DNA of 24,441 nt from positions 1-24,441 of the forward strand of contig NW_021836373.1 in NCBI RefSeq assembly GCF_006345805.1, written 5' to 3'. The position numbers were made by a program, and so were the translations under genes. This document shows, one piece after another, positions 1 to 24,430 of the stretch. Within the stretch, counting starts at the first letter, position 1; every line of letters starts with the position of its first letter. This DNA is from Octopus sinensis. Taxonomy: Eukaryota. A model generated the notes under the pieces. The model saw nothing but the letters and a program-made list of their open reading frames with translations. It searched no databases and had not been told where the DNA came from.

Positions 1-351
1 TGGTACTACTTAATTTACTCGAAACACAATCGACCATAGTGGGGGGCGTGACAGACCCAGAAAGGATGAAAGGCAAAGTCAACCTCATTGAATTTGAACT
101 CAGAATGTAAGAAGACGAAAACCTATTTCTTTACTGCCCACAAGGGGCTAAACACAGAGGGGACCAACAAGGACAGACATAGGTATTAAGTCGATTACAT
201 CGACCCCATGCTAACTGGTACTTAATTTATCGACCCCGAAAGGATGAAAGGCAAAGTCGACCTCGGCGGAATTTGAACTCACAACGTAGCGACAGACGAA
301 ATACCGCTAAGCATTTCGTCCGGCGTGCTAACGTTTCTGCCACTCGCCGCC
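1..351 (-). mobile_element. tRNA-derived SINE array (two units visible, cut by the window start); duplicate of the array at 5798-6579
   Basis: Same sequence as ~6258-6579 but with many small indels. The minus-strand head GGCGGCGAG..TGGCAGAAACGTTAG has a B-box GAGTTCAAATTCC. Followed on the + strand by tttttaatacc. Confidence 0.85.
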
Positions 352-563
352 TTTTTAATACCGGTATTCCGCAGCCAGTCACATGCTCGGAGAAAAACTT
401 GTCAATTTTGATATAAAAACAGCTGAATAAAATATGACTGGCGTGAATATGTCGACCAAAATCCCGGAAATTATAAAATAAGTGAATTACAAAAATCCGT
501 ATTTATGAATACCTCTCATATTTTGCATAATTCCTCTTCATGTAAAACCAGTCTTATTCATTC

Positions 564-877
564 AAAAATGGTTATAATGAATGGTCCTACTCTAAATATG
601 CACCTGTTGATTGGAGAGCAGGCGAGAGGGATCGTACATTGGTGGGTAGAATAATCCTGGATCTGTGGGATTACTTGATTGGCCCTAGTTGAATTTCCTC
701 CTGTATCAGGACTGTTTCATTGATTTATCACATGATAATAGTATTTCACTGTGTTTTCCTTCCTTCCTTCTCCCCATCTTTTACTTAAATCCTCACACGC
801 GAATTGTTGTCTGTCCTTGTAACGTTCTTCTCATCTATGCCCTGAGGCTAATAAAAGAAATGATTATTATTATTATT
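564..877 (+). mobile_element. 5'-truncated Tx1/L1-clade LINE 3' fragment (second subfamily) ending in (ATT)n
   Basis: From 568 it translates MVIMNGPTLNMHL, resembling the ORF2 C-terminus MARMNDEATLTMIL of the LINE at 18307. A pyrimidine-rich UTR follows. The terminus ctgtccttgtaa...gccctgaggctaataaaagaaa resembles the LINE terminus ctaccttgtaa...gccctgtgtggctaataaagaaa. Confidence 0.7.
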
Positions 878-1185
878 GCTCTTGTTGTTGTTGTTGGCTT
901 TACAACGCAGTAATCTTTAAAGAACTGCTCCAGCAGATGGCGCTGGAAGCCGACATGTCGAAATCATTCCCTAGTGACTTTCTCAATTAGCTGTCATTTT
1001 GACTGGATATTCTAATGATTGATACCGAATTCGGATCACTTTCTCCGGTTAAAAGATGGGTCGCTACGTCCTTAATTTTCTTCATCGCTTGTTCTCAGCT
1101 TCTGACAGATCACACAACATCATCGACGTAACATTCCAGCTCCTGGCAGCAAACCCCCACTTTCTCTCGTTTCCCGCCACTCATC

Positions 1186-1202
1186 ATCTATCTATCTATC
1201 TA

Positions 1203-1274
<72 letters not shown>

Positions 1275-1304
1275 ATCTATCTATCTATCATCTATCTATC
1301 TATA
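1186..1304. repeat. (CTAT)n microsatellite
   Basis: Visible tetranucleotide array; counterpart at ~7420-7517. Confidence 0.95.
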
Positions 1305-1419
1305 TTATTGTCTGTCTCCTTGTTTATTTAACAGCAGACAGCTTCAATCATCAACTCTAAATGAGATCAAGCTTTCAACACTGAAAAACAAGCAAAATAT
1401 CCCCTACTATCTGTGGGCC

Positions 1420-1451
1420 TATCTATCCAATCTATCCAATCTATCTGTCTA

Positions 1452-1518
<67 letters not shown>

Positions 1519-1670
1519 GTCTGTCTGTCTGTCTGTCTGTCTACCTATCTGTCTGTGTCTGTCTGTCTTGTCTGTGTGTCTGTGTATCTGTCTGCCGTTT
1601 GTCTGTCTCTCTTACACACCAACACTCTCTCTTCTTTCCCCTCTCTCTCTCTCTCTTCATCTCTCTTTCT
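1420..1670. repeat. Compound (CTAT)n/(CTGT)n/(CT)n microsatellite
   Basis: Visible; source of the SIYL/SVCL pseudo-ORFs. Counterpart at ~7634-7870. Confidence 0.9.
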
Positions 1671-1677
1671 ATCAATC

Positions 1678-1852
1678 ATGTTACAACTTCGCTATTATTT
1701 TCTGTTTATTCGCTTCCCCTGTCACCTCACTCACGGCACACCTACACACACTCACACACATACACCCATACATATATCATACATATATATGTATATATAC
1801 ACACACATACATATATATTCATATGCACTTACATATCTATATTAGACTATGC

Positions 1853-1898
<46 letters not shown>

Positions 1899-2100
1899 TA
1901 TAATTATATTTTACTTACAACACACACATGTGTATATAAGTATATATAGAGAGAAATATAGATATGTATGTGTATATGATATAATGTTATGCGTGGATAT
2001 ATATATGTATGTATATATATGTGTGCGCGTGTGTGTGTTTGAGTGTTGGGAGGTGGACAGAAGAAGAGATGAACAGAAAATAATAGCGAAGTTTTGACAT
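1678..2100. mobile_element. Degenerate foldback/MITE-like element with long inverted arms
   Basis: Left end atgttacaacttcgctattattttctgtttat is the near reverse complement of right end atgaacagaaaataatagcgaagttttgacat. Inner segments are also inverted (tatatattcatatgcacttacatatctatatt vs aatatagatatgtatgtgtatatga..). Confidence 0.65.
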
Positions 2101-2149
2101 ACACACTCACCATACACATATGCGCATAAGCAATCTAAGCACACAGCCA

Positions 2150-3523
2150 TCTTATATAAAAATGACAATTTCTGTCCGTCTGTTTTTTACCATCTTGTTG
2201 CCTATATCAGCGAGCCAATTTTTACGAAACTTTGCATACATTTAAACTAACATCCAGTTCAATATAAACTAATTGGATTGCAATTAAAATTTATAAATGG
2301 GCCCCCTACGGGCGTTGGGTTATTATATGATAAAATGAGAAGAAAAATGTGGTGGCATAATGAGGGTGGCTGATATCAGGGAAGAGAAGGAGACGACAGG
2401 AAGAAACAGTGAGACAGGGAATATGAGAGATAGAGAGAGAGAACAGCGATAGGGATAGGCAGGAGAGAATGTGTTTACCGAGGGAACAACGAATTTAATA
2501 CTTTGTTCTTTAATTTTACCTGTCATTTTACTTATCGCATGCTCAGTCAAAAATTTTTTTAGTGAAAAGTAAAGTGTTTTTATATTGTTTTCAAACCACT
2601 GTTTAAGATTTATTAAAACTTTACCAACGTACTGAAACAATAAAACTATAGAAATTCGTTTTATTTTCTTCCATTGATGAATAATAGCCCGTCGTTGTGA
2701 GGCATTTTTACAATAGTATGTCTTATACATTTTTGTTTATCCATGTCAGACCATGCTTTCCCCTTTCCCCAACAGATAGGCCTCTTGATCAGGACAGATT
2801 TGTGCAATTTTTCGGAAAAAAGTTCGTTCGCGATCTTTTTCCTTTTAAAATTACCTGCATGTTTGTTCGACCCGTTTCACATGACTTTATTCATTAAAAC
2901 TTATTAAAATATCAGAAGTTCTAACAACTTGGTCGTTGTAATGCCTAGCTTTCGTTTGTTTAATAAAAAGTCCCTCACACTAATGATTTGCTTTCATTTG
3001 TGATAAACACTTATCATGCAGAAAATGCTAACTTCCAATCGTGTTTTCTGATTAGGTAAAAGTGATTAAATTTTAAACCCCAGTGACATTTTTACTGCAC
3101 TATTTCTAGAGCAAATAAATAAAAAATTCGGATTTAACGTGGAAAAGTATTTCAATATACCAAATTTGAACATTTTGAGCTAATTTTAAATTTCACAATG
3201 TGACAGTAATGGGAAAACCCCCCAAAATTGATAATATTCAACCTTCAATTGTTTCATAGTCGCACATCGTCATCCCCTCAACATTCTAACCATCCACCAA
3301 TTCAACTTTGATATTACCTTACCATTACAAATCAATCATTATGATTTAAATATTTTACCTTGCAGTATTTGTAAATATATCCCACGTCACGTGTATTTGT
3401 AAATTTATTTGTAATTTAAACGGAAACTGAACAGGGAACGGGATAGGATATGCAACATTGTAATGGGAACGGGAGCTGGAAATACCCTCGACTTTTCCGG
3501 GTATTACCGGGTAATTCAGCTAG
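2150..3523 (+). mobile_element. Non-autonomous Helitron
   Basis: Starts A|TCttatataaaaatg and ends CTAG|T. GC-rich hairpins lie just upstream of the end (aataccc..gggtatt; ccgg-gtatta-ccgg). No TSD. The 5' part has tctgtccgtctgt..ccaatttttacgaaactttg, of the kind seen in short Helitron-derived repeats. Confidence 0.75.
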
Positions 3524-3913
3524 TATTCTATAAAGAATACATGTCTATGCACAAATACATGTGTGTGTGTGTGTGTGTATTGTACAAACATATGTATGTA
3601 TACAAACACACACGCACACATACACCTTGAATGTCAACATTCACATCGATATCAACGAGTACTCGTACATGCTCACACATGTTCGCACGCCCAGGTGATT
3701 CAGTGCGCGCGCGAACATGTGTGTAGGGAGGGTGATGGTGATAGTTGTGTGTGTGTGTGTGTGCCTCTGTGTGTGTGCATGCATATCCGTCCATCCCTGA
3801 GTCTGTGCGCGCGCGCGTGTGTACATGGGGTGGGGTGGGGTGGAGATTATATGCGTACGACCGTAAATATGGATGAGTGCCTGATGAAATTCTGGGTATG
3901 ATTTTCCTCCACT

Positions 3914-3970
3914 GTTAGTTGAAGGCTACCAAACCTGCCATACACAGACAACTTCAGCTTTATATATTAT
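3914..3970 (-). mobile_element. Possible 5' terminal fragment of another Helitron-like repeat at the duplication junction
   Basis: Minus strand reads ataatatataaagctgaagttgtctgtgtatggcagg, similar in style to Helitron 5' ends. Only ~55 bp are present. Confidence 0.3.
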
Positions 3971-4199
3971 TTTTTACTGTCCACAAGGGGCTAAACATAG
4001 ATGGAACACACAAGGACAGACAAAGGGAACAAAGGGATTAAGTCGATTAGATCGACCCCAGTGTGTAACTGGTACTTAATTTATCGACCCCGCAAGGATG
4101 AAAGGCAAAGTCGACTCCAGCGGAATTTGAACTCAGAACGTAAAGCCAACGAAATACTGCTAAGCATTTCGCCCTGCGTGCTAACGTTTCTGCCAGCTG
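3971..4199 (-). mobile_element. tRNA-derived SINE, single diverged copy of the 5798-6579 family (resembles octopus OR-type SINEs)
   Basis: Aligns end to end with the array monomer; B-box (ggaatttgaactc on +) present. Confidence 0.85.
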
Positions 4200-5338: not shown

Positions 5339-5797
5339 TCCCGTGTACGCAGTTGAGTCAGTATTTAATTAAAATAGCTTTCTATGTAACATACTTAATG
5401 TATACACACAACCTCGATAGGCCAATTACTGCAGTATTTGTCTTGAGCTAGAATCATTTATGGACTTGCTGTTTTAAAAAGCACAATGCCGTATTTTCCA
5501 GCATAGATACTGACGTAATATACCAAGTAAACTTGCAGTGCAAGCGTCCAAACATCGTCACTGTCTTTCCAAATTTTGTTGCATTTCACAGGCAATTTTT
5601 GGTCCTCAAAACTCGTCGCTTTGGTCATCAAAAAACGGTCGGCCTACGATGAGGGTGGGGCGGGCAGTTGGAGATTTTGGTCTGAAAAAAATTCGACTTG
5701 TATGCTGCAGAATACCGTAAAATATCAGAGAAAGACGAAAATTCAGCCAGCGTGAACGCCAGATGCATTTCTGTTATTTTGGGACCTTTTTAATACC

Positions 5798-6579
5798 TAT
5801 TTCTTTATTACCCACAAGGGGCTAAACACAGAGGGGACAAACAAGGACAGACATAGGTATTAAGTCGATTACATCGACCCCAGTGCGTAACTGGTACTTA
5901 ATTTATCGACCCCGAAAGGATGAAAGGCAAAGTCGACCTCGGCGGAATTTGAACTCAGAACGTAACACAGACGAAATACCTATTTCTTTATTACCCACAA
6001 GGGGCTAAACACAGAGGGGACAAACAAGGACAGACATAGGTATTAAGTCGATTACATCGACCCCAGTGCGTAACTGGTACTTAATTTATCGACCCCGAAA
6101 GGATGAAAGGCAAAGTCAACCTCAGTGGAATTTGAACTCAGAATGTAAAGACAGACGAAATACCTATTTCTTTACTGCCCACAAGGGGCTAAACACAGAG
6201 GGGACAAACAAGGACAGACATAGGTATTAAGTCGATTACATCGACCCCAGTGCGTAACTGGTACTTAATTTATCGACCCCGAAAGGATGAAAGGCAAAGT
6301 CAACCTCAGTGGAATTTGAACTCAGAATGTAAAGACAGACGAAATACCTATTTCTTTACTGCCCACAAGGGGCTAAACACAGAGGGGACAAACAAGGACA
6401 GACATAGGTATTAAGTCGATTACATCGACCCCAGTGCGTAACTGGTACTTAATTTATCGACCCCGAAAGGATGAAAGGCAAAGTCGACCTCGGCGGAATT
6501 TGAACTCACAACGTAGCGACAGACGAAATACCGCTAAGCATTTCGTCCGGCGTGCTAACGTTTCTGCCAGCTCGCCGCC
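5798..6579 (-). mobile_element. Head-to-tail tetramer of the tRNA-derived SINE, flanked by one 11-bp TSD
   Basis: On the + strand, units begin at 5798, 5981, 6165 and 6349 (periods 183/184/184). Only the last unit has the complete tRNA head. TSD tttttaatacc at 5787-5797 and 6580-6590. Confidence 0.9.
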
Positions 6580-6795
6580 TTTTTAATACCGTATATTCCG
6601 CAGCCAGTCACATGCTCGGAGAAAAACTTGTCATCTTTGATATAAAAAACAGCTGAATAAAATATGACTGGCTGTGAATATGTCGACCAAAATCCCGGAA
6701 ATTATAAAATAAGTGAATTACAAAAATCCGTATTTATGAATACCTCTCATATTTTGCATAAATTCCTCTTCATGTAAAACCAGTCTTATTCATTC

Positions 6796-7109
6796 AAAAA
6801 TGGTTATAATGAATGGTCCTACTCTAATATGCACCTGTTGATTGGAGAGCAGGCGAGAGGGATCGTACATTTGGTGGGTAGAATAATCCTGGATCTGTGG
6901 GATTACTTGATTGGCCCTAGTTGAATTTCCTCCTGTATCAGGACTGTTTCATTGATGTTATCACATGATAATAGTATTTCACTGTGTTTTCCTTTCCTTT
7001 CTCCCCATCTTTTACTTAAATCCTCACACGCGAATTGTTGTCTGTCCTTGTAACGTTCTTCTCATCTATGCCCCTGAGGCTAATAAAAGAAATGATTATT
7101 ATTATTATT
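6796..7109 (+). mobile_element. Duplicate of the Tx1-type 3' fragment at 564-877
   Basis: Part of the duplication; same terminus and (ATT)n tail. Confidence 0.7.
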
Positions 7110-7419
7110 GCTCTTGTTGTTGTGTTTGCTTTACAACGCAGTAATCTTTAAAGAACTGCTCCAGCAGATGGCGCTGGAAGCCGACATGTCGAAATCATTC
7201 CCTAGTGACTTTCTCAATTAGCTGTCATTTTGACTGGATATTCTATGATTGATAACCGAATTCGGATCACATTTCTCCGGTTAAAAGATGGGTCGCTTAC
7301 GTCCTTAATTTTTCTTCATCGCTTGTTCTCAGCTTCTGACAGATCACACAACATCATCGACGTAACATTCCAGCTCCTGGCAGCAAACCCCCACTTTCTC
7401 TCGTTTCCCGCCACTCCTC

Positions 7420-7517
<98 letters not shown>

Positions 7518-7665
7518 ATTATTGTCTGTCTCCTTGTTTATTTAACAGCAGACAGCTTCAATCATCAACTCTAAATGAGATCAAGCTTTCAACACTGAAA
7601 AACAAGCAAAATATCCCCTACTATCTGTGGGCCTATCTATCCAATCTATCCAATCTATCTGTCTA

Positions 7666-7724
<59 letters not shown>

Positions 7725-7878
7725 GTCTGTCTGTCTGTCTGTCTGTCTACCTATCTGTCTGTGTCTGTCTGTCTGTCTGTGTGTCTGTGTATCTGTCTGC
7801 CTGTTTGTCTGTCTCTCTTACACACACACCATACTCTCTCTTTCTTTCCCTCTCTCTTCATCTCTCTTTCTATCAATC

Positions 7879-8053
7879 ATGTTACAACTTCGCTATTATT
7901 TTCTGTTTATCGCTTCCCCTGTCACCTCACTCACGGCACACCTACATACACTCACACACATACACCCATACATATATACATACATATATATGTATATATA
8001 CACACACATACATATATATTCATATGCACTTACATATCTATATTAGACTATGC

Positions 8054-8107
<54 letters not shown>

Positions 8108-8302
8108 TTTTACTTACACACACACAATGTGTATATAAGTATATATAGAGAGAAATATAGATATGTATGTGTATATGAATATATATGTGTATGCGTGGAT
8201 ATATATATGTATGTATATATATGTGTGCGCGTGTGTGTGTTTGAGTGTTGGGAGGTGGACAGAAGAAGAGATGAACAGAAAATAATAGCGAAGTTTTGAC
8301 AT
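7879..8302. mobile_element. Duplicate foldback/MITE-like element
   Basis: Same inverted termini as 1678-2100. Confidence 0.65.
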
Positions 8303-8352
8303 ACACACTCACACATACACATATGCGCATAAGCAATCTAAGCACACAGCCA

Positions 8353-9738
8353 TCTTATATAAAAATGACAATTTCTGTCCGTCTGTTTGTTACCATCTTG
8401 TTGCCTATATCAGCGAGCCAATTTTTACGAAACTTTGCATACATGTTAAACTAACATCCAGTTCAATTATAAACTAATTGGATTGCAATTAAAAATTATA
8501 ATGGGCCCCCTACGGGCGTTGGGTTATTATATGATAAAATGAGAAGAAAAATGTGGTGGCATAATGAGGGTGGCTGATATCAGGGAAGAGAAGGAGACGA
8601 CAGGAAGAAACAGTGAGACAGGGAATATGAGAGATAGAGAGAGAGAACAAGCGATAGGGATAGAGCAGGAGAGAATGTGTTTACCGAAGGGAACAACGAA
8701 TTTTAATACTTTGTTCTTTAATTTTTACCTGTCATTTTACTTATCGCATGCTCAGTCAAAAATTTTTTTTAGTGAAAAGTAAAGTGTTTTTATATTTGTT
8801 TTCAAACCACTGTATTAAGATTTATTAAAACTTTACCAACGTACTGAAACAATAAAACTATAGATAATGTCTTTTATTTTCTTCCATTGATGAATAATAG
8901 CCCGTCGTTGTGAGGCAATTTTTACAATAGTATGTCTTATACAAATTTTTGTTTATCCCATGTCAGACCATGCTTTCCCCAACAGATAGGCCTCTTGATC
9001 AGGACAGATTTGTGCAATTTTTCGGAAAAAAAGTTCGTTCGCGATCTTTTTCCTTTTAAAATTACCTGCATGTTTGTTCGACCGTTTCACATGACTTTAT
9101 TCATTAAAACTTATTAAAATATCAGAAGTTCTAACAACTTTGGTCGTTGTAATGCCTAGCTTTCGTTTGTTTAATAAAAATTCCCTCACGTAATGATTTT
9201 GCTTTCATTTGTGATAAACACTTATCATGCAGAAAATGCTAACTTCCAAATCGTGTTTTCTGATTAGGTAAAAGTGATTAAATTTTAAACCCCAGTGACA
9301 TTTTACTGCACTATTTCTAGAGCAAATAAATAAAAAATTCGGATTTAACGTGGAAAAGTATTTCAATATACCAAATTTGAACATTTTGAGCTAATTTTAA
9401 AATTTCACAATGTGACAGTAATAGGGAAAACCCCCAAAATTGATAATATTCAACCTTCAATTGTTTCATAGTCGCACATCGTCAATCCCCTCAACATTCT
9501 AACCATCCACCAATTCAACTTTGATATTACCTTACCATTACAAATCAATCAATTTTATGATTTAAATATTTTACTTGCAGTATTTGTAAATATATCCCAC
9601 GTCACGTGTATTTGTAAATTTATTTGTAATTTAAACGGAAACTGAACAGGGAACGGGATAGGATATGCAACATTGTAATGGGAACGGGAGCTGGAAATAC
9701 CCTCGACTTTTCCGGGTATTACCGGGTAATTCAGCTAG
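8353..9738 (+). mobile_element. Duplicate non-autonomous Helitron
   Basis: A|TC start at 8353; CTAG|T end at 9738. Confidence 0.75.
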
Positions 9739-10782
9739 TATTCTATAAAGAATACATGTCTATGCACAAATACATGTGTGTGTGTGTGTGTGTATTGTAC
9801 AAACATATGTATGTATACAAACACACGCACACATACACCTTGAATGTCAACATTCACATCGATATCAACGAGTACTCGTACATGCTCACACATGTTCGCA
9901 CGCCCAGGTGATTCAGTGCGCGCGCGAACATGTGTGTGTAGAGGGTGATGGTGATAGTTGTGTGTGTGTGTGTGTGCCTCTGTGTGTGTGCATGCATATC
10001 CGTCCATCCCTGAGTCTGTGCGCGCGCGCGTGTGTACATGGGGTGGGGTGGGGTGGAGATTATATGCGTACGACCGTAAATATGGATGAGTGCCTGATGA
10101 AATTCTGGTATGATTTTCCTCCACTTTTTTGGCTTCAGTATTCATTGTTTAACTATGTGTATTTCATACTTAAAGTATACACATAGTTAAAAGCCTTCTA
10201 AATTGCAATATTTGTGTCAAAAATACTTTTATAGACGTATAGTGTTAAAAAGCACAGAAATATATCAGCAGTAGGCAAAAATCTACTCACTATATATGAA
10301 TCATTAACGTAATTCACACAAACCTTTGAAGATATTTCAAATTATATCTACTAGTTGTTTACGTTTATTCATTCCAAGGATTAACATGAGTAGATCTGAT
10401 TATTTTCAGTTACAATAAACAACAATAGATGTAAAAATAATAAATTTTCGGGCATCTCTGTGCCTCCCTTCTATCTTTTGCTTTATCCTTCTTGCAGAGA
10501 AGCTCAATTCTATTCTCAGCTTAACTGCAAGTATTCTGCAAGTGGAAGATTTTATATGGTTAAATGAGTCGTTAAAAGTTGAAACATTTCATACCTCAGT
10601 TTGCTAATTCAGGGAATGTATTATTACGATTATGCTGCTTTATATACATCTTGTCATACGTTTCTTTTGTAGAAAAGGATTTGCTCAGTTCCAACGTCAA
10701 TAGATCTTCATTTCTGGTGATCTGTTGCTGCGAAGTAATTTGGCACACCATCAAATTGTGTGTGTGTGTGTGTGTAAAAATA

Positions 10783-12662: not shown

Positions 12663-14784
12663 CATTTATACACTACATCGTTAATATCACAATTATTATT
12701 TAATATACAATTAGATTTATCTCTACATGTACAATAATATAAGTCTTATCATTATTAATATTATTATCAAATAATTTCTTTTTATAAAAATTATTCAGTT
12801 ATATTTATTAAATGAAGAAATAATGTTACCAACATTATTAGTGGTAGAGTAACCAACCAACTCCAAAATTATTAAAAGAGAAAATGTTTCTATATTTACG
12901 ATTATCTCTAATAAATTGTCTATAACATCTAAAATCTCTTTAATAATATTCGTTTTACTTGATCTCCATAAGGAACTATTAACCAAATTTTATTCTTATT
13001 AACCTTATTATTATTATCATTATTATAAATATATTTAAATTCTTTATTTTATTAAATTTATCAGAATTATATCTATGTACAGCATTTAAGGAATTATTAA
13101 TATTATTAAATTTATCAATATAATTATTATAAATTTTTAAATTTATTTTTATTTATATTATCCTTATTTATATTATTATTATTATATTTATTATTATTAT
13201 TATTATACTTATTTATATTTTTATCATTTTTATTATTTTTTTTATAATATCTATTATTTTTACCACTAAACCTAACAAAATTATAATTATTATTAGAAGT
13301 ATCTCGAAAATTAACAATTAAATCTTTATCGCTAATATTATAAAATTTAATATTCCTATTATAACCTGCCCCTCTAAGGGCCTCATTATAATAATTAGCA
13401 TGTTTATTAAAAATCTCTATATCATAAGAGAGTAATGAAATACGTTTACTTATATTATTAATCAACGATTTTTTAATAGAAAATGGGTGATTACTATTAA
13501 TTTATATATCTAAGGTTCTCATTAAGTTTATGATATGGTTGTGTTTTACCTGTAATAAGATTAAAATTAACATCTAAATAATTAACATTATAATTCTCCT
13601 TATATATAGTAATACGTAAACCATATCTTTTAAAGAAACTATATAGTTTTTTCTTATATACTTCTAGATTCCTATTAGTACAATTCTTTGTAACTAGTAG
13701 AAGATCGTCTCTATATAAACCACCCTCTATCTTAAGATTTTCTAATTGGAGTTCAGATAAAAGAAAAATACCTACTAAATCAGTAGCCTGTGCAGAATCT
13801 GGTGCTCCCATAGGTATATCAAAACAATCTCTAGTATCATTCCTAGCCATATTTATTTTTATATTAATTAGCGATTTCCTAGCCATTTTAATTACATTAA
13901 CTTCTTCCGTGACATGCCCACTTTATTCATTGCGAAAATAAGCGCTTTATTAAACACAATTTCATTAATAGAAGAATAATAATTATCTATATCTATTTGA
14001 ATAAATTTATAACGATTTTTATCTTTAATATTATTAAACCATTTCAATGTATTATTATTACTAAACCATAATTTTAAATAATTAAGTTTATTTAACTTAT
14101 CAATATATTTATCTAAAATAAATTTACTTAATTTACCTAGGTCCGATTTACATGGGCAAATTAATCTAACTTTAGGGTCTGAATAAAAATTATCTTTATG
14201 GTCTTTAAGAGTAATTCTGGGGTGCAGAGGTACATAAGGTTCAGTTTTATTATCCAACTCATATTTTAACATACTACTTTTTTAGAGGCCTTATTAATAT
14301 TATAAAGAATATCATCTGGAACAATTTTATATTTTTTAATTATTTCTTTCCCTAATAGTTTATCATATAATTTAACATCTAATATATATAAGTTCCTTGT
14401 TTTATCAGATTGTACTATAATACCATCCATATTTCTCATATCTTTAATTTTAATTGCTAAATTCCTTAAATATTCATTATTTCTATTTGGGTATTTATGG
14501 AATTCAATATTTTTTACCACCTTCCATATACTATCTTCAAGTAATTGTAATTCTTTATAAATGGAGGTTCCTTTCTAGATTTAAATTTAGAGGTATAATT
14601 ATCATTCCTACTATCAATATCATTAATAAATAAAAATTATAGTAAAAAGCTTTCCATTTAATTCTAGAAATAAAATCTTTACATTATTAACAAGTTTCAA
14701 GATAAATTCCTTTCTAGAAGGAATAGGAATATCTTTCAAAGATGAATCCCAAAACAGCGGTTCTATCTTACCTGTAAAATCCAT
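12662..14784 (-). pseudogene. Penelope-like element ORF (reverse transcriptase plus the start of a GIY-YIG endonuclease), frameshifted and 3'-truncated at (TA)n
   Basis: ATG at 14784. Motifs in order: SLKDIPIPS..SRIKWKAF, SDKTRNLY, RITLKDHKDNF..VRLICP, FIQIDIDNYYSSI, MGAPDSAQATDLVG, GLYRDD, NYLDV, SNHP..KRIS, YSTTNN, CTCRDKSNCILNNNC..VVYKC. DKT in place of DKG and GLYRDD suggest a non-Poseidon clade (possibly 'Hydra'; recalled, not verified). Confidence 0.88.
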
Positions 14785-17489: not shown

Positions 17490-17603
17490 ACAGAGATAGA
17501 TAGACAGATAGAGAGGGAGAGAGCGAGAGAGAGAGAGATAAATAAACAAATAGACAGACAGACAGACAGACAGACAGATAGATAGATAGATAGATAGATA
17601 GAC

Positions 17604-17643
<40 letters not shown>

Positions 17644-17648
17644 GGATG

Positions 17649-17699
<51 letters not shown>

Positions 17700-17700
17700 G

Positions 17701-17777
<77 letters not shown>

Positions 17778-17867
17778 GTAATCGGTTAGACAGAGAGACA
17801 TTTAGGTAACTGGGTAGACAGACAGACAATTAATTAGTTTGTTAGATAGATAGATAGAGAGATAGAG

Positions 17868-17944
<77 letters not shown>
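17490..17944. repeat. Long compound (GATA)n/(GACA)n microsatellite abutting the LINE 3' end
   Basis: Visible. Confidence 0.95.
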
Positions 17945-18306
17945 TGTTTCTTTATTAGCCACACAGGGCTGCACACAGATAGAACAAATTACAAGGTAGA
18001 GCTTTTCTTTTGAAGTTTAAAAAAAAAAAGGAAGGGGAGTTTCGATCAAAAGGGATCGTAAAAGGAGAGAAAGAGGACAAAAAAAGGGGGGTTAAAAAAA
18101 AGGGGGAGAGGAAAAAAAATTGATCAATAGGGATCGTTATAACAGAATGTCAATATGAAGTGTAAAGGGGAGGACAGGTGGTTTACCCGTGGAAAGAAAA
18201 GCCTACGGAAAAGACCACGGTAACCTCGGTCAATGAAGTCACATTTTATATTTCTTTTTTTTTTTTTTTTTGCAAATAAGCAACTCTCTGTTTTCGATTT
18301 CTGGGT

Positions 18307-21300
18307 TCATAGGATCATAGTCAAGGTGGCTTCGTCATTCATACGTGCCATTCTTGCTACATTCACCCATCTTTTTTTAAAACATTCGCTAGACAAAACT
18401 TGCCTCTCTACTCTCACTTTCCTTTTCAAGTGGTACTTGAAGAGTTGATGAGAGATTGACCAGAGAGGAAAGTGTTTGTCTCCAATCCTTTCAGACGCGT
18501 CCACCAGATACATTCTTTCGCCATAGCCACAAGGATGATGAAAATAGCTCTTCCTTCCCGTTTGAAGGAAGGAGGCGTGACAATATTGACGATAGACTCA
18601 GCTGATAAACCGACTCGTCCCACACGTGACAGCAGTTGTTCGACATAAGCCCACAGGTCGGAAATTGTTGGACACTGAACGAGTGCGTGCAGAACGGTTT
18701 CGTCGCTCTGACCGCATCTCGGCAGGTCGGCCCCGTGTTTCTCGAGCCGTGTCTGTAGAGCTTATCCCGAACGGGTAGCGCTTCCCGGTAGCACTGCCAG
18801 GCCAGGGATCTCTGGAAGTTGTCCATGGGCCCTGGCCCGAAAGTCGTCCTGAACAGGCGGGTCAGGTACTCCTCGTCGACGTCCAGGTTCGCCCCGAGCT
18901 CGTCGTCGTACCTCCCCTCCACTAAACCCCTATAGAATGCTTTGGTTGTGTTGAAGTCACTTAAGGTCGACCCAGGACGGCAGAGTTGCTTGAGAGCAAC
19001 GCGACACTCGCGGTGCCATTCGCCCTTCCTCGGCCTCTTTTTGATCCACGACTGCAGTTCGGTCATGGAGACGAGCTGCGGGAAAGCGTGCCTCACAAAA
19101 GGCGACCACACCTGTTCACCGTCGTCTACATAGAGCCAGAGATGTCGCAGTCTCAGCGCGTGTCTGCGCATCATCAACCACGGCATGCCCAGCCCTCCTT
19201 TTAACGGGTGTTGACAGCAAATGGATCGCCTGACCAGCGGGACGCACCCTTTCCACAAGAAGCGAAAGAGGATGCGTTGTAGTTTGGTGATGGTAGGGTC
19301 GGGACAAGGTACGACGGTCAGGCGGTAGTAGATGACGGACGCGATGTACGTGTTCGCCACCTCCGCTCGACCTCTTAGGGACAGTTTCCTCTCGGCCCAT
19401 TGCTGGGCGAGAGTGACCACCCTACTCGTTATCTCGTTCCAGTTCTTCTCCACTTGGAGGTCCGGACCAAACCAGACCCCGAGCAACTCAACCGGGCCGT
19501 CGGTCCAGCGTCCCACGACGGGGGCGCAGGTGGACGGCATGGGCTTGCTTCTCCAGGTGCCTAGTCGCAAGCCCACTGACTTTTCCCGGATGATTTTCGC
19601 TCCTGTCACCGCTTCGTAGTTTTTCAGTGTCTCGCCGACCAGCTCGATGTTCTCGTGGCTAGACACTATGACGGTGACGTCGTCCGCGTATGCAGACACG
19701 CTCGTCCCGCATCCCAATTCTCGCGGGATGCCCCTAGAGTCGCCAGCTTCCGCAGTAGTGGCTCAAGAGTCAATACGTATAGAAGCGCCGAGAGGGGCAT
19801 CCCTGACGGACCGAACGTGCAATGTCGAAAGGTCTCGATAGATGTCCATTTACGCGAATTACCGAACGGATGCCTCTGTACAAGGCAGCTATCCAGCCGC
19901 GGAAGACGGGACCGAAACCAGCCACTCTCAGGACTGCCTCCAAGTATCGATGGTCTACCCTATCAAAGGCTTTCGATTGATCCAGTTGATCAGGGCGCCA
20001 CCCATGCCAGGTTCGTTAACTACCCTGTCTATGATGTAGCGCATCAGATAGAGGTGTCATGGATGGTCCGGCCTGGCACGGCGCATGTTTGCGCCTTGTC
20101 GACCAGTTTCTCGATGACAAGCGCCAACCTCTTGGCTAGCACCTTGGCCAAAATTTTCAAGTCTGCATTAAGCAGAGTGATGGGCCTAAAGTTATCTATT
20201 ACATTTCCTTGTTTAGATCTTTCTTCAGCAGTGTTACGGCTCCTCGGCTCACAAAACCAGGAATGCTCCCGTTTTGCTGCCAGTTGCAGTACACCGCCGC
20301 CAAGAGATCTCCAAACAAGTCTGGCATTCAATTGTAAAGCTCGTAGGGTAGACCATCCAAACCCGGTGATTTGTCCCTCGAGCATTCTGCCATCGCTTCC
20401 CGCACTTCCGCCGCCGTGATGGCACCTTCGCAGCACCCTGCCTTCTTTTGTCGAGAGTCGTGGTAGGCTATGTAGGTAGGCACTGAAGTCCACCCTACGT
20501 TCTTGCCCCCACTCGTTCCGAACAGTCGGGCAAAATGCTGCTGAAAGGCCTCACACATTTTACTTGGCTCGAGCAATTCGCGCCCCTGTTCATCTACCAG
20601 TGACCGAATGGTGGCTTTGTTGCCCTGTTGCGCCTCTGCCACCCGGCCTCTCTCGCGGCTCCAACACCTTCGTTCCTTAGAGCACGCATCCTAGCTCTGA
20701 CAGCACATCCTTCGTGTTTGGCGTTGAAGTGTTGGTCGAGGGCCAACCTCGCCGCCAAAACGTCGGATGCGATGCCGCTTCTAATTGCCTCTTCTAGCTT
20801 CTTAACTAGCTCACCCTCTACTCTATTTCTATCTATGGCTAGTGCTTTGCTGTACCTAATCGCTTCTGCTTTTTTACTGCTCTCTTGAGGGCAAACCACC
20901 ATTTGTTGTTGATGATGGCTCCCGTCAAAGCCCTCTTTACTAGTGTGCTAATCCGGTCTCTGAAAACTTGTCTCGATGGAAAGACGCGTTTAGTTTCCAG
21001 TATCCGGGACCCTGCCTAAGTGTCTTACCTAAGTCTAGCGTACATGTCACAAGTTTGTGATCCGTGTAGCTGACTATGTGGAATTGTGGACATCCTATGC
21101 TATCTCTATCTACTGTCCTACACAGTATCCTATCTAGATACGATCTCGACGAGCCGATGCGGTTGCTCTATGTCCACGTTGGCGCATTCGGGTGGTCTAG
21201 TCGGAACCTGTCAGACAGTTGAAAGCGTCTGAGCAGGTCTCTGAGGCATTTGCATCCCCGTCTATTCCTCTATCTCTACCCACGTAGTCTACATGCGTGT

Positions 21301-21737
21301 CCAAGGTAGCATTCCAATCCCCCACTAAGAGTAAAGGACGAGACGTTCCCAAAAAACTTCTAGACGTTGAAAGAAGTCCGCCCGACCTGTAAGGGCGGTG
21401 CGTAAACTGATACGAGTCGAAAAGCGCACACCATTGCTGCCGTCGACATCCAGGACGACCAGTCTACCCTCCGGGTCTACGAATATTGTCCTTACTTTGA
21501 GATCCAGACTCTTGTGAAAAAGTACCGCGGTGCCACTACCGCCCATTCTCGGCAGACAGGGGGGAAAATAAATGTTGAACTGTCCGCCAAACATGGTCTT
21601 TAGGGCCCGCGGATTGTGGAGTTTGGTCTCGCTTATGGCTATGATTTCTAACTTATGTGACTTTATGTCATTTAAGAGGTACCCTGTTTCCAAGGGGACC
21701 CCAAGCCACGCGCATTTACACAACCAATCTTGATCAT
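18307..21737 (-). pseudogene. LINE ORF2 (APE endonuclease, reverse transcriptase, C-terminal CCHC), broken by several frameshifts
   Basis: Motifs: MIKIGCVNARGL, IIAISET, DPEGRLVVLDV, KSPGLDGLPYELY, FRPITLLNADLKILAKVLAKRL, QGCPLS, SAYADD, LLGVWFG, KGGLGMP, ETVLHALVQC. Stop at 18307. Confidence 0.92.
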
Positions 21738-21768
21738 AGTTCTAATGAATTAGAATACAGAGGGTTAC

Positions 21769-21953
21769 TTACTGCTCGAAAGTTTTTGCTTTCTCCTCCG
21801 TTGGTTTGTCCTCGAGAAGATCCCAGTACAGTTTCTTTGTGAGATATTTTTGGCATTTACCAACCGCACTGGGGAAAATGCCTTTGAGTGTGTGGTGCAG
21901 ACTTTTGGAGATGTGTAATATTTGGATGTGGTCTGGTGGTGTTGTGTATGGGT
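21769..21953 (-). pseudogene. Putative C-terminal remnant of LINE ORF1
   Basis: Open frame HPYTTPPDHIQIL...EKAKTFEQ* ends ~30 bp upstream of the ORF2 ATG. The call is positional only. Confidence 0.5.
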
Positions 21954-21980
21954 GATAGATAGATAGATAGATAGATAGAC

Positions 21981-22051
<71 letters not shown>

Positions 22052-22287: not shown

Positions 22288-23335
22288 AAAAACTTGATGG
22301 AAATATTGACCTTCTGTGTACAAACTACCTATTTCAGTTTGGACACTGGTATATATCGACATGAAGAGGTTTAGCTATGGTTCGCCGTTATCACCGATAA
22401 TAGCCAATATATACATGAGAATTTGGCGTTAGGATCAACACCACTAAAACCAATACTATGGCTGCGATATATTGATGACAGCTTTATACTCTGGCCTCAC
22501 CAAGAAGATGTCCAATTGCTGTTAGATCATATGAACTCAATAAAACCATCCATGCATTTCACAATGGAAAAGGGAAAAAAGGACAATCAGCTAGCATTCC
22601 TGAACGTATTAATAACACGCACTAAGTATGGATTGAAGACATCCGTATATCGCAAACCGACCTTCACTGGACGGTACCTCAACTTCAATTCCCACCATCC
22701 ATACAGTGTAAAGACAGGGATTGCTCAGTGCATAAATCACCGTGCAAAGAATATAAGTAGCGATCGTAATTCACACCACGAAGAAATGATCAAGCTCAAT
22801 AACAATCTATTAAGCAACAACTACCCCAAAAACATACTATCAACTCCAATTATGAAGAAAAGAGAGAGTGAAAACAATAAACTGTCTACAGTCTGTCTAC
22901 CCTATGTCAAATGCCTTTCCGAAAAGATACAAAAGATATGCAGCCCATATGACATCAGGATAGTATTCAAGAGGAATACAACACTTCACAAACAACTCCT
23001 CAACTCCTCCGGGTAAAACCACCAATAGAAGAGAATATGACCAAAAACTGTGTGTGCTCCATCCCATGCAGCTGTGGTAGCTTATACAAAGGCGAAACAT
23101 GCCGCCACTTCACGAGGAGATATTGTTATTCGAGTATAGCAGATCACATGGAAAAATGGAGATCACCTCCTCCAGTGGGATGAAGTTAAAATAATAGACA
23201 GAGAACACCACTGGAAAGTACGAAAACTAAAAGAAGCAGCACATATGCTAGGACACAACAACCTCCTAAGCAGACCGAGTGCAGATATGAATAGCATATG
23301 GGAACCGGTATTAAGGAAGGATAGGAATACGAATG
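22288..23335 (+). pseudogene. 5'-truncated Penelope/Poseidon-type PLE ORF (RT C-terminal half, thumb, GIY-YIG)
   Basis: GLAM(G)SPLSPIIANIYM (frameshifted), WLRYIDD, LAFLNVLI, SVYRKPTFTGRYLNFNSHHP, LPYV, NCVCSIPCSCGSLYKGETCR, REHHWKVRKLKEAAHM. Begins right after (TA)n at ~22273-22287. Confidence 0.9.

Positions 23336-23935: not shown

Positions 23936-24430
<495 letters not shown>

Follow-up and report, generated by a model that had tools for sequence, protein, structure and literature searches.

A SINE in a 24,441-nt stretch of the Octopus sinensis genome (contig NW_021836373.1, positions 1 to 24,441; hereafter the window) carries a 3' tail with homology to LINE 3' ends of the L1/Tx1-like type. 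The tail homology extends across a cephalopod clade of these LINEs, the element ends are fixed and free of poly(A), each LINE family has landing sites of its own, and one of them (lineage C) inserts at position 51 of the SINE. From these comparisons, we consider it fairly probable that the SINE, with its clade-shared tail, is reverse-transcribed in trans mainly by lineage C, whose GGTA site lies in the SINE head, and not by the LINE family of the window (family A), which a sequence-only reading had named as the partner.

The LINE and SINE copies of the window

The window holds a 5'-truncated, frameshifted copy of the L1/Tx1-like family A (17945..21956, minus strand), covering roughly the final 4.0 kb of the 6.1-kb element and 98% identical to a near-full-length copy, L221, starting at L221 position 2038. 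It consists of an ORF2 remnant (APE endonuclease and reverse transcriptase, RT), with ORF2 pieces across all three frames, followed by the 3' UTR; the domains Exo_endo_phos and RVT_1 are below cut-off in this copy and above cut-off in sister copies. The 3' tail, delimited by alignment and by comparison of copies (17945..17996, minus strand), comprises a pyrimidine/GT stretch, a hairpin, AATAAAGAAA and a terminal CA, without poly(A). The target is a (TATC)n microsatellite, which stands on the 3' side of the LINE at 17560..17944 (left edge approximate) and on the 5' side at 21957..22050 (both minus strand).

The best matches at 30 family A loci (from 40 listed among 1,061 candidates, the window copy included, with a query that held 4 flank bases) all stop at one and the same base, with no poly(A), and TATC repeats follow directly in 29; the 5' starts of the near-full-length copies L221 and L223 also lie within TATC repeats. 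In a random 1 Mb of the genome (100 evenly chosen 10-kb stretches), the A-lineage was the commonest class among non-SINE tails (8/16), and its seven readable ends stood before TATC (five), a CA repeat (one) and a TC repeat (one). The family is young, with copies about 96-98% alike. Divergence values for older A and for family B were left aside, as they mix subfamilies and contain mis-sorted rows. Family A is a microsatellite-targeting element, and the copy in the window is an ordinary broken member of a family that is sister to lineage C.

The SINE is a short (about 235 nt), high-copy, non-coding element, represented in the window by an array of the youngest subfamily, S1a (5798..6582, minus strand), with one head-bearing unit (6349-6582) and three units of 183-184 nt that lack the head, each starting again at SINE position 51. 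The tail that was originally taken as the SINE end (5798..5846, minus strand) belongs to the final unit of this four-unit array; further tail copies end at 5981, 6165 and 6349. The tRNA-like head (6496..6569, minus strand) contains what we take to be an A-box-like stretch (6559-6569) and a B-box (GTTCAAATTC, 6496-6505), both assigned by eye from the box consensus, and the SINE body presumably resembles the Meta domain. Searches with Rfam and ARAGORN returned nothing relevant, and gave no tRNA call for the SINE head. The head also contains the landing site C/GGTATTT (6526..6535, minus strand; SINE position 51 corresponds to window position 6532), as defined by lineage C and SINE copies. The array is bounded by a 13-nt target-site duplication that starts with GGTA (3' copy, 5785..5797; 5' copy, 6578..6590, overlapping the first head bases; minus strand). 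A duplicate SINE locus lies at 54..362, within a duplication of 6.2-kb period, and an older, diverged copy (87% identical) at 3968..4198 (both located by alignment, minus strand).

Other features of the window were noted in passing. Positions 54-3913 and 6275-10125 are segments duplicated in tandem (96.5% identical, with a period of about 6.2 kb); the duplicate has related copies on two other contigs and may represent haplotype or assembly redundancy. A near-perfect palindrome with 129-nt arms occupies 23976-24236; a similar sequence also interrupts the lineage C copy in L203, which suggests a MITE-like repeat. Broken ORFs at 12900-14600 (minus strand) and 22300-23330 (plus strand) resemble, by eye, what we take to be remnants of Penelope-type RT/GIY-YIG elements; Pfam gave no match for either.

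The shared 3' tail and its predicted hairpin

Both tail strings from which a link between LINE and SINE had been read are present in the window (LINE, 17947-17996; SINE, 5800-5846), and their collinearity over about 50 nt was confirmed, the 50 columns holding 39 identical and 8 mismatched positions plus a single gap of 3 nt (sense = minus strand). The tails are also more alike than shuffled controls (score 53; dinucleotide shuffles averaged 17-22 and peaked at 39-42); none of 5,000 shuffles reached 53 with any of three query lengths. With the AATAAAGAAA block removed the score was 33, matched or beaten in 11 of 5,000 shuffles. The AATAAA described after the hairpin is present, but is variable in the SINE, reading AGTAAA in 19 of 34 exact-pattern tails of the random 1 Mb. 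Despite AATAAA, no genomic poly(A) was found at any SINE or LINE junction inspected.

The LINE of the window is not the best match to the SINE tail, as C2 and older A copies score higher. Local tail scores against the window's SINE subfamily were 62 for C2, 61 for older A copies, 54 for C, 53 for the window copy of A, and 50 each for young C and for family B (shuffle maxima, 24-31); over the last 35 nt, the identities were 31 (C2), 29 (C), 29 (young C), 28 (A) and 21 (B). C2 and older A are inseparable by tail sequence alone, and are separated by landing site.

The module is present on a third element of the window, family B, an older L1/Tx1-like family recognised by ORF2 homology, whose 3' end (6790..7092, plus strand; duplicate at 558-862) carries the same tail, ending near 7092 and 862, followed by (ATT)n; homology to the ORF2 C-terminus lies upstream of this end in other copies. 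More module-bearing ends were found in the random 1 Mb, one of them (L289) with ORF2 upstream. The tail module is therefore clade-wide and not specific to the LINE/SINE pair of the window. In a quick RT tree of 64 rows (18 octopus-type and 46 of 120 listed homologues, none of them a named Tx1 element such as Tx1L, Kibi or Koshi), a single clade with SH-aLRT 100, set in a polytomy, unites the RT pieces of families A, B, C and E; the nesting of family B within A likely reflects short, degraded rows.

The ORF2 domains above cut-off (Exo_endo_phos and RVT_1 in A; RVT_1 and zf-RVT in C) place these elements in the L1/Tx1 group of APE-type LINEs; the best solved relative is human L1 ORF2p. Family A matched the zebrafish pol-like protein BAC82613 with 185 bits and human L1 with 109 bits (different databases), and we take BAC82613 to be from the Kibi/Koshi/Dewa series. 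Among named proteins, those nearest to these LINEs come from Argonauta hians (59%) and a cuttlefish (46%). Membership in Tx1 proper is likely because insertion is target-specific (A in TATC at 29 of 30 loci, C at SINE position 51 at 26 of 30). Family E, the fourth of the clade (L229:590-660, 6700-6790), is located within the head of the other abundant SINE of the genome, and short fragments of the two SINE heads stand at its 5' end.

The hairpins first described for the LINE (17957..17970, minus strand; stem AGCC/GGCT, 6-nt loop) and for the SINE (5810..5822, minus strand; stem GCCC/GGGY, loop CTTGT) were reproduced as the predicted folds of 31-nt tails; the stability of 58-nt tails showed no excess over shuffles (z = 0.44, -1.25, -0.21). 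The pairing was said to survive sequence change; between the window LINE and SINE the stem shifts register by one base with no compensatory change, and true double changes appear only once other families are added. In an ungapped MAFFT alignment of 15 tails, hand-picked because the motif was visible and including two other tails borne by the same SINE body and some ends whose LINE origin is unconfirmed, a 4-bp helix was paired in 54 of 60 cells, with three of four pairs changed on both sides and the closing C-G pair invariant throughout. Paired cells amounted to 90% (69.8% when shuffled) and covariation to 0.562 (0.187 when shuffled; 0/500), slid-register controls were 20-47% paired, and RNAalifold recovered the same helix unprompted. 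Roughly four independent changes underlie the covariation, and family A fits the alignment only with a register shift. The covariation supports a hairpin that would act as a recognised RNA structure. Two marks of a stringent SINE/LINE pair are seen, namely a homologous 3' end and a 3' stem-loop with compensatory changes, the latter from few independent events in a hand-picked set.

The same SINE head and body also occurs with two other tails, ending in (ATT)n (L073:2267-2314, L314:8795-8841); both keep the CTTGT loop, and their stems differ yet are fully paired. Two related non-SINE ends in L298 (minus strand) carry the same hairpin as alternative tail 1; no ORF2 match lies close to them, and they are possibly non-autonomous members of the clade.

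Landing sites and the probable mobilising LINE

A 29-nt pattern of the SINE tail had 76,944 exact matches in the genome (reversed control, 0); GGTA stands directly after 39,660 of these, and TATC after almost none. Among 67 complete SINE tails in the random 1 Mb, 16 were nested at SINE position 51 and one at position 18, and 50 were classed by script as 'other', a class that contains a few nested copies on inspection; of these 50, 10 precede AGAA, 9 GGTA and 6 TATA. TATC-type repeats followed 2 of the 67 by a loose pattern, L320 being one of the two. For the young subfamily of the window, GGTA followed six of eight non-nested copies in the same sample.

Target duplications measured 13-18 nt in 18 resolved SINE copies, as obtained with a method that is blind below 13 nt and mostly from sets chosen by 3' flank or by likeness to the window copy; a pyrimidine stands just before the cut in 15 of the 18. 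Between the two copies of the duplication there were no mismatches at positions 1-3 (0/54) and four at positions 4-5 (4/36). GGT is part of the target, because it stands in both duplication copies; no clear sign of GGTA as a part of the SINE, or of an RNA read-through that overwrites the target, was seen in these 18 duplications, and both ideas were set aside, tentatively in view of the small sample. Two adjacent SINE units of the window are 99% identical, and the duplicate locus holds three units, not four; SINE arrays can grow at the DNA level, which supplies part of the genome-wide GGTA count.

Some copies show other arrangements. Older SINE copies in L045, L048, L218 and L142 are joined at AGAA at SINE position 18, near the A box, and one non-SINE end (L253:1241-1335) joins the SINE a few bases beyond position 18. 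L049 contains the first 100 nt of the SINE three times in tandem inside a single target duplication. L320 (minus strand) is a full SINE copy in a TCTG/TATC repeat with the terminal CA of family A, and proved real on inspection. Family A was then considered as the mover of a CA-ended SINE subset, and rejected when TATC repeats followed none of 30 tails inspected from 4,005 CA-ended tails.

Two pattern searches for a partner matched SINE tails and not LINEs; the 30 loci of the second pattern were judged to be SINE variants by their matched text and because an ORF2 C-terminal match was found in none. Lineage C was seeded from one of 30 junction-pattern loci, in which a LINE end is joined to SINE position 51, and its loci were gathered by searching with the 3' UTR of this seed. 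Among 30 C loci (the seed and one duplicate pair included), 26 run into SINE position 51 (25 by script, and L196 by eye), one runs into the SINE after a deletion, two run into non-SINE sequence starting with GGTA, and one is without a readable end; both copies outside the SINE thus also precede GGTA. The long copies L219 and L215 are preceded by the SINE head up to about position 65-67 and followed by the SINE from position 51/52 onward, and show a 15-17-nt target duplication. Inspection of the first 20 TT-type junctions gave 15 C-lineage LINE ends and five SINEs, correcting one label of the script and settling two that it had left open; ORF2 was confirmed in 14. Seven young C copies differ by 0-0.5% from their own majority sequence over 400 nt, and C2 copies show 2-7% divergence in six cases and 29% in one, where exact-pattern selection of C junctions favours young copies. 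The lineage has at least 338 first-look candidates and at least 253 exact junctions, by a pattern that also catches SINEs.

Family A is not supported as the partner of the SINE, as the tail is clade-wide, the sites differ (TATC against GGTA) and lineage C shares the SINE site; the window family is probably not the main driver. The SINE does not show the insertion signature of family A, whereas it shows that of lineage C in the young subfamily and the nested copies, though not in older copies at AGAA or TATA. Lineage C fits better because it is closest in the last 35 nt (31/35, against 28/35 for A), uses a GGTA site in the SINE head and has near-identical young copies; as C inserts within the SINE head, the SINE likely owes its mobilisation to an element that parasitises it. 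The broader proposal of a non-poly(A) Tx1-type LINE as the mobilising element keeps the support of tail homology and hairpin covariation, and loses the window family as the partner.

Several observations speak against lineage C. The young C tail scores no better than that of the window family (50 against 53), older A-lineage tails are on a par with C2 in their match to the SINE (61 against 62), and C is much stricter in site than the SINE, for which GGTA followed only 9 of the 50 non-nested random tails. L320 sits in a TATC repeat with the family A terminal CA, and C looks scarce beside the SINE, its counts being lower bounds. The hairpin is not unusually stable, and the GGTA count comes in part from arrays that can grow at the DNA level.

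In the mechanism that we favour, Pol III would transcribe the SINE from its A and B boxes, and ORF2 would bind, just before the A-rich end, to a conserved hairpin that is closed by a C-G pair and has GT at the end of its loop; the endonuclease would nick Y/GGTA-like sites and then prime reverse transcription. Because the head of the SINE contains the landing site, copies would nest in one another at position 51, and each new SINE would give C another place to land. For older SINE subfamilies at AGAA or TATA, the mover was probably a different member of the clade. The landing site should reflect the enzyme, because the Tx1L endonuclease is described as sequence-specific in vitro in the accessible text of PMC1950540; reading the partner from the site assumes that specificity resides in the endonuclease. 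The further idea of a self-feeding SINE-LINE loop, in which the tail came from a site-specific Tx1-type LINE that targets the promoter region of the SINE and repeated swaps of hairpin tails within one Tx1 clade each shifted the landing preference, appears to us evenly balanced.

If an RNA 3' extension guided landing, several families could share SINE mobilisation. Under this alternative, which we regard as unlikely, several families of the clade, A included, would recognise their shared hairpin and each mobilise the SINE, and annealing of the extension would partly set the site. It would accommodate the clade-wide tail, the loose SINE sites (GGTA, AGAA, TATA, GATA), a pyrimidine before the cut in the SINE (15/18), the C site and the A site alike, the L320 copy, and inspected genomic junctions free of poly(A) in spite of AATAAA; however, the target shows no clear RNA-derived overwriting (0/54 at positions 1-3, 4/36 at positions 4-5), the pyrimidine at -1 is unlike the last base of the SINE (A), and the youngest subfamily is concentrated on GGTA (6/8 non-nested). 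That family A is the dedicated partner of the SINE is less probable still, and seems quite doubtful: its tail match is significant, the pyrimidine/GT stretch that its older tails have in common with the SINE is longer (score 61), its ends are the commonest class of non-SINE tails and the family is young, but A lies in TATC (29/30) where the SINE hardly occurs (2/67; 0/30 for CA-ended tails), and the 3'-most bases of the SINE (GTGGG, terminal T) match C and not A. Least probable, and very much so, is that the tail is an old template-switch relic, with another LINE moving the SINE without tail recognition and nesting due to DNA-level duplication, since the weakness of the hairpin alone and the evident unit duplication are outweighed by a SINE end point fixed as in the LINEs, target duplications of similar length, the use of the exact site of C, and two alternative tails of the same SINE that keep the helix with changed pairs.

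Relation to known SINE/LINE systems

The proposed mobilisation by lineage C resembles several known systems in part. SINEU elements of crocodilians were assigned to Tx1 families (Tx1-Mar) by a shared insertion site in an abundant transposon (Kojima 2015, PMC4494074). As far as this source is accessible, SINEU and Tx1-Mar are alike to the octopus system in their tandem insertions at the site and in other Tx1 families of the same genome that target microsatellites; SINEU has snRNA heads, poly(A) tails and a third element, Mariner-N4, as target, and for SINEU-1 no LINE with a matching 3' end was found. The octopus SINE, in contrast, has a tRNA-like head, a LINE-homologous tail without poly(A), and itself as target.

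Stringent pairs of the L1 clade are known from maize (ZmSINE2/3 and LINE1-1_ZM) and Chlamydomonas (SINEX-3 and L1-1_CR) (Ohshima 2013, PMC3747384). These also share about 50 nt of 3' end and a hairpin with compensatory changes within the L1 superclade, but come from plants and algae and not animals, and site specificity is not reported for them in the accessible part of that review. Xenopus Tx1L lands in Tx1D (PMC1950540), and Kibi and Koshi target (TC)n and (TTC)n (PMC4494074). Like C and A, these are sequence-specific APE-type elements that land in a mobile element or a microsatellite; a passenger SINE is not mentioned for them in the accessible text of these papers. No TATC target of such elements was found in the published literature.

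Mollusc SINEs carry CR1, CR1-Zenon, L2 or Nimb tails, and include the octopus elements OR1, OR2 and OK (PMC11481361, PMC4758252, PMC4824008). They resemble the present SINE in the tRNA head and the swapped LINE-derived tails, and bivalve arrays have one head and truncated inner units; the accessible portions of these papers name no Tx1 or L1 partner for mollusc SINEs, OR1, OR2 and OK included, and those of PMC3531059, PMC5786205 and PMC13282606 likewise name no Tx1 partner for SINEs. Thirteen recently active L1-Tx1 families are reported for Octopus vulgaris (PMC13282606, accessible text). A shared-tail SINE/Tx1 pair, from octopus or other organisms, was not found in the literature; Repbase, Dfam, SINEBase and the octopus SINEs of 1994 lay outside the comparison, and may hold the SINE.

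Within the L1 superclade, SINE/LINE pairs with a common tail are rare (L1-tailed SINEs make up 3 of 58 in the accessible text of the review, in plants and algae; Ohshima 2013, PMC3747384), and none was found for Tx1 in the literature as far as it was accessible. A pair of this kind in an animal, and without poly(A), is relevant to the question of whether the ancestors of L1-like elements already recognised 3' ends stringently. With one hairpin, several targets and very young copies, the clade forms a natural series in which RNA recognition and target choice could be studied apart. The system may explain how the SINE reached at least 77,000 copies and came to form arrays; if the self-feeding loop is true, the LINE would multiply its own landing sites by copying the SINE.
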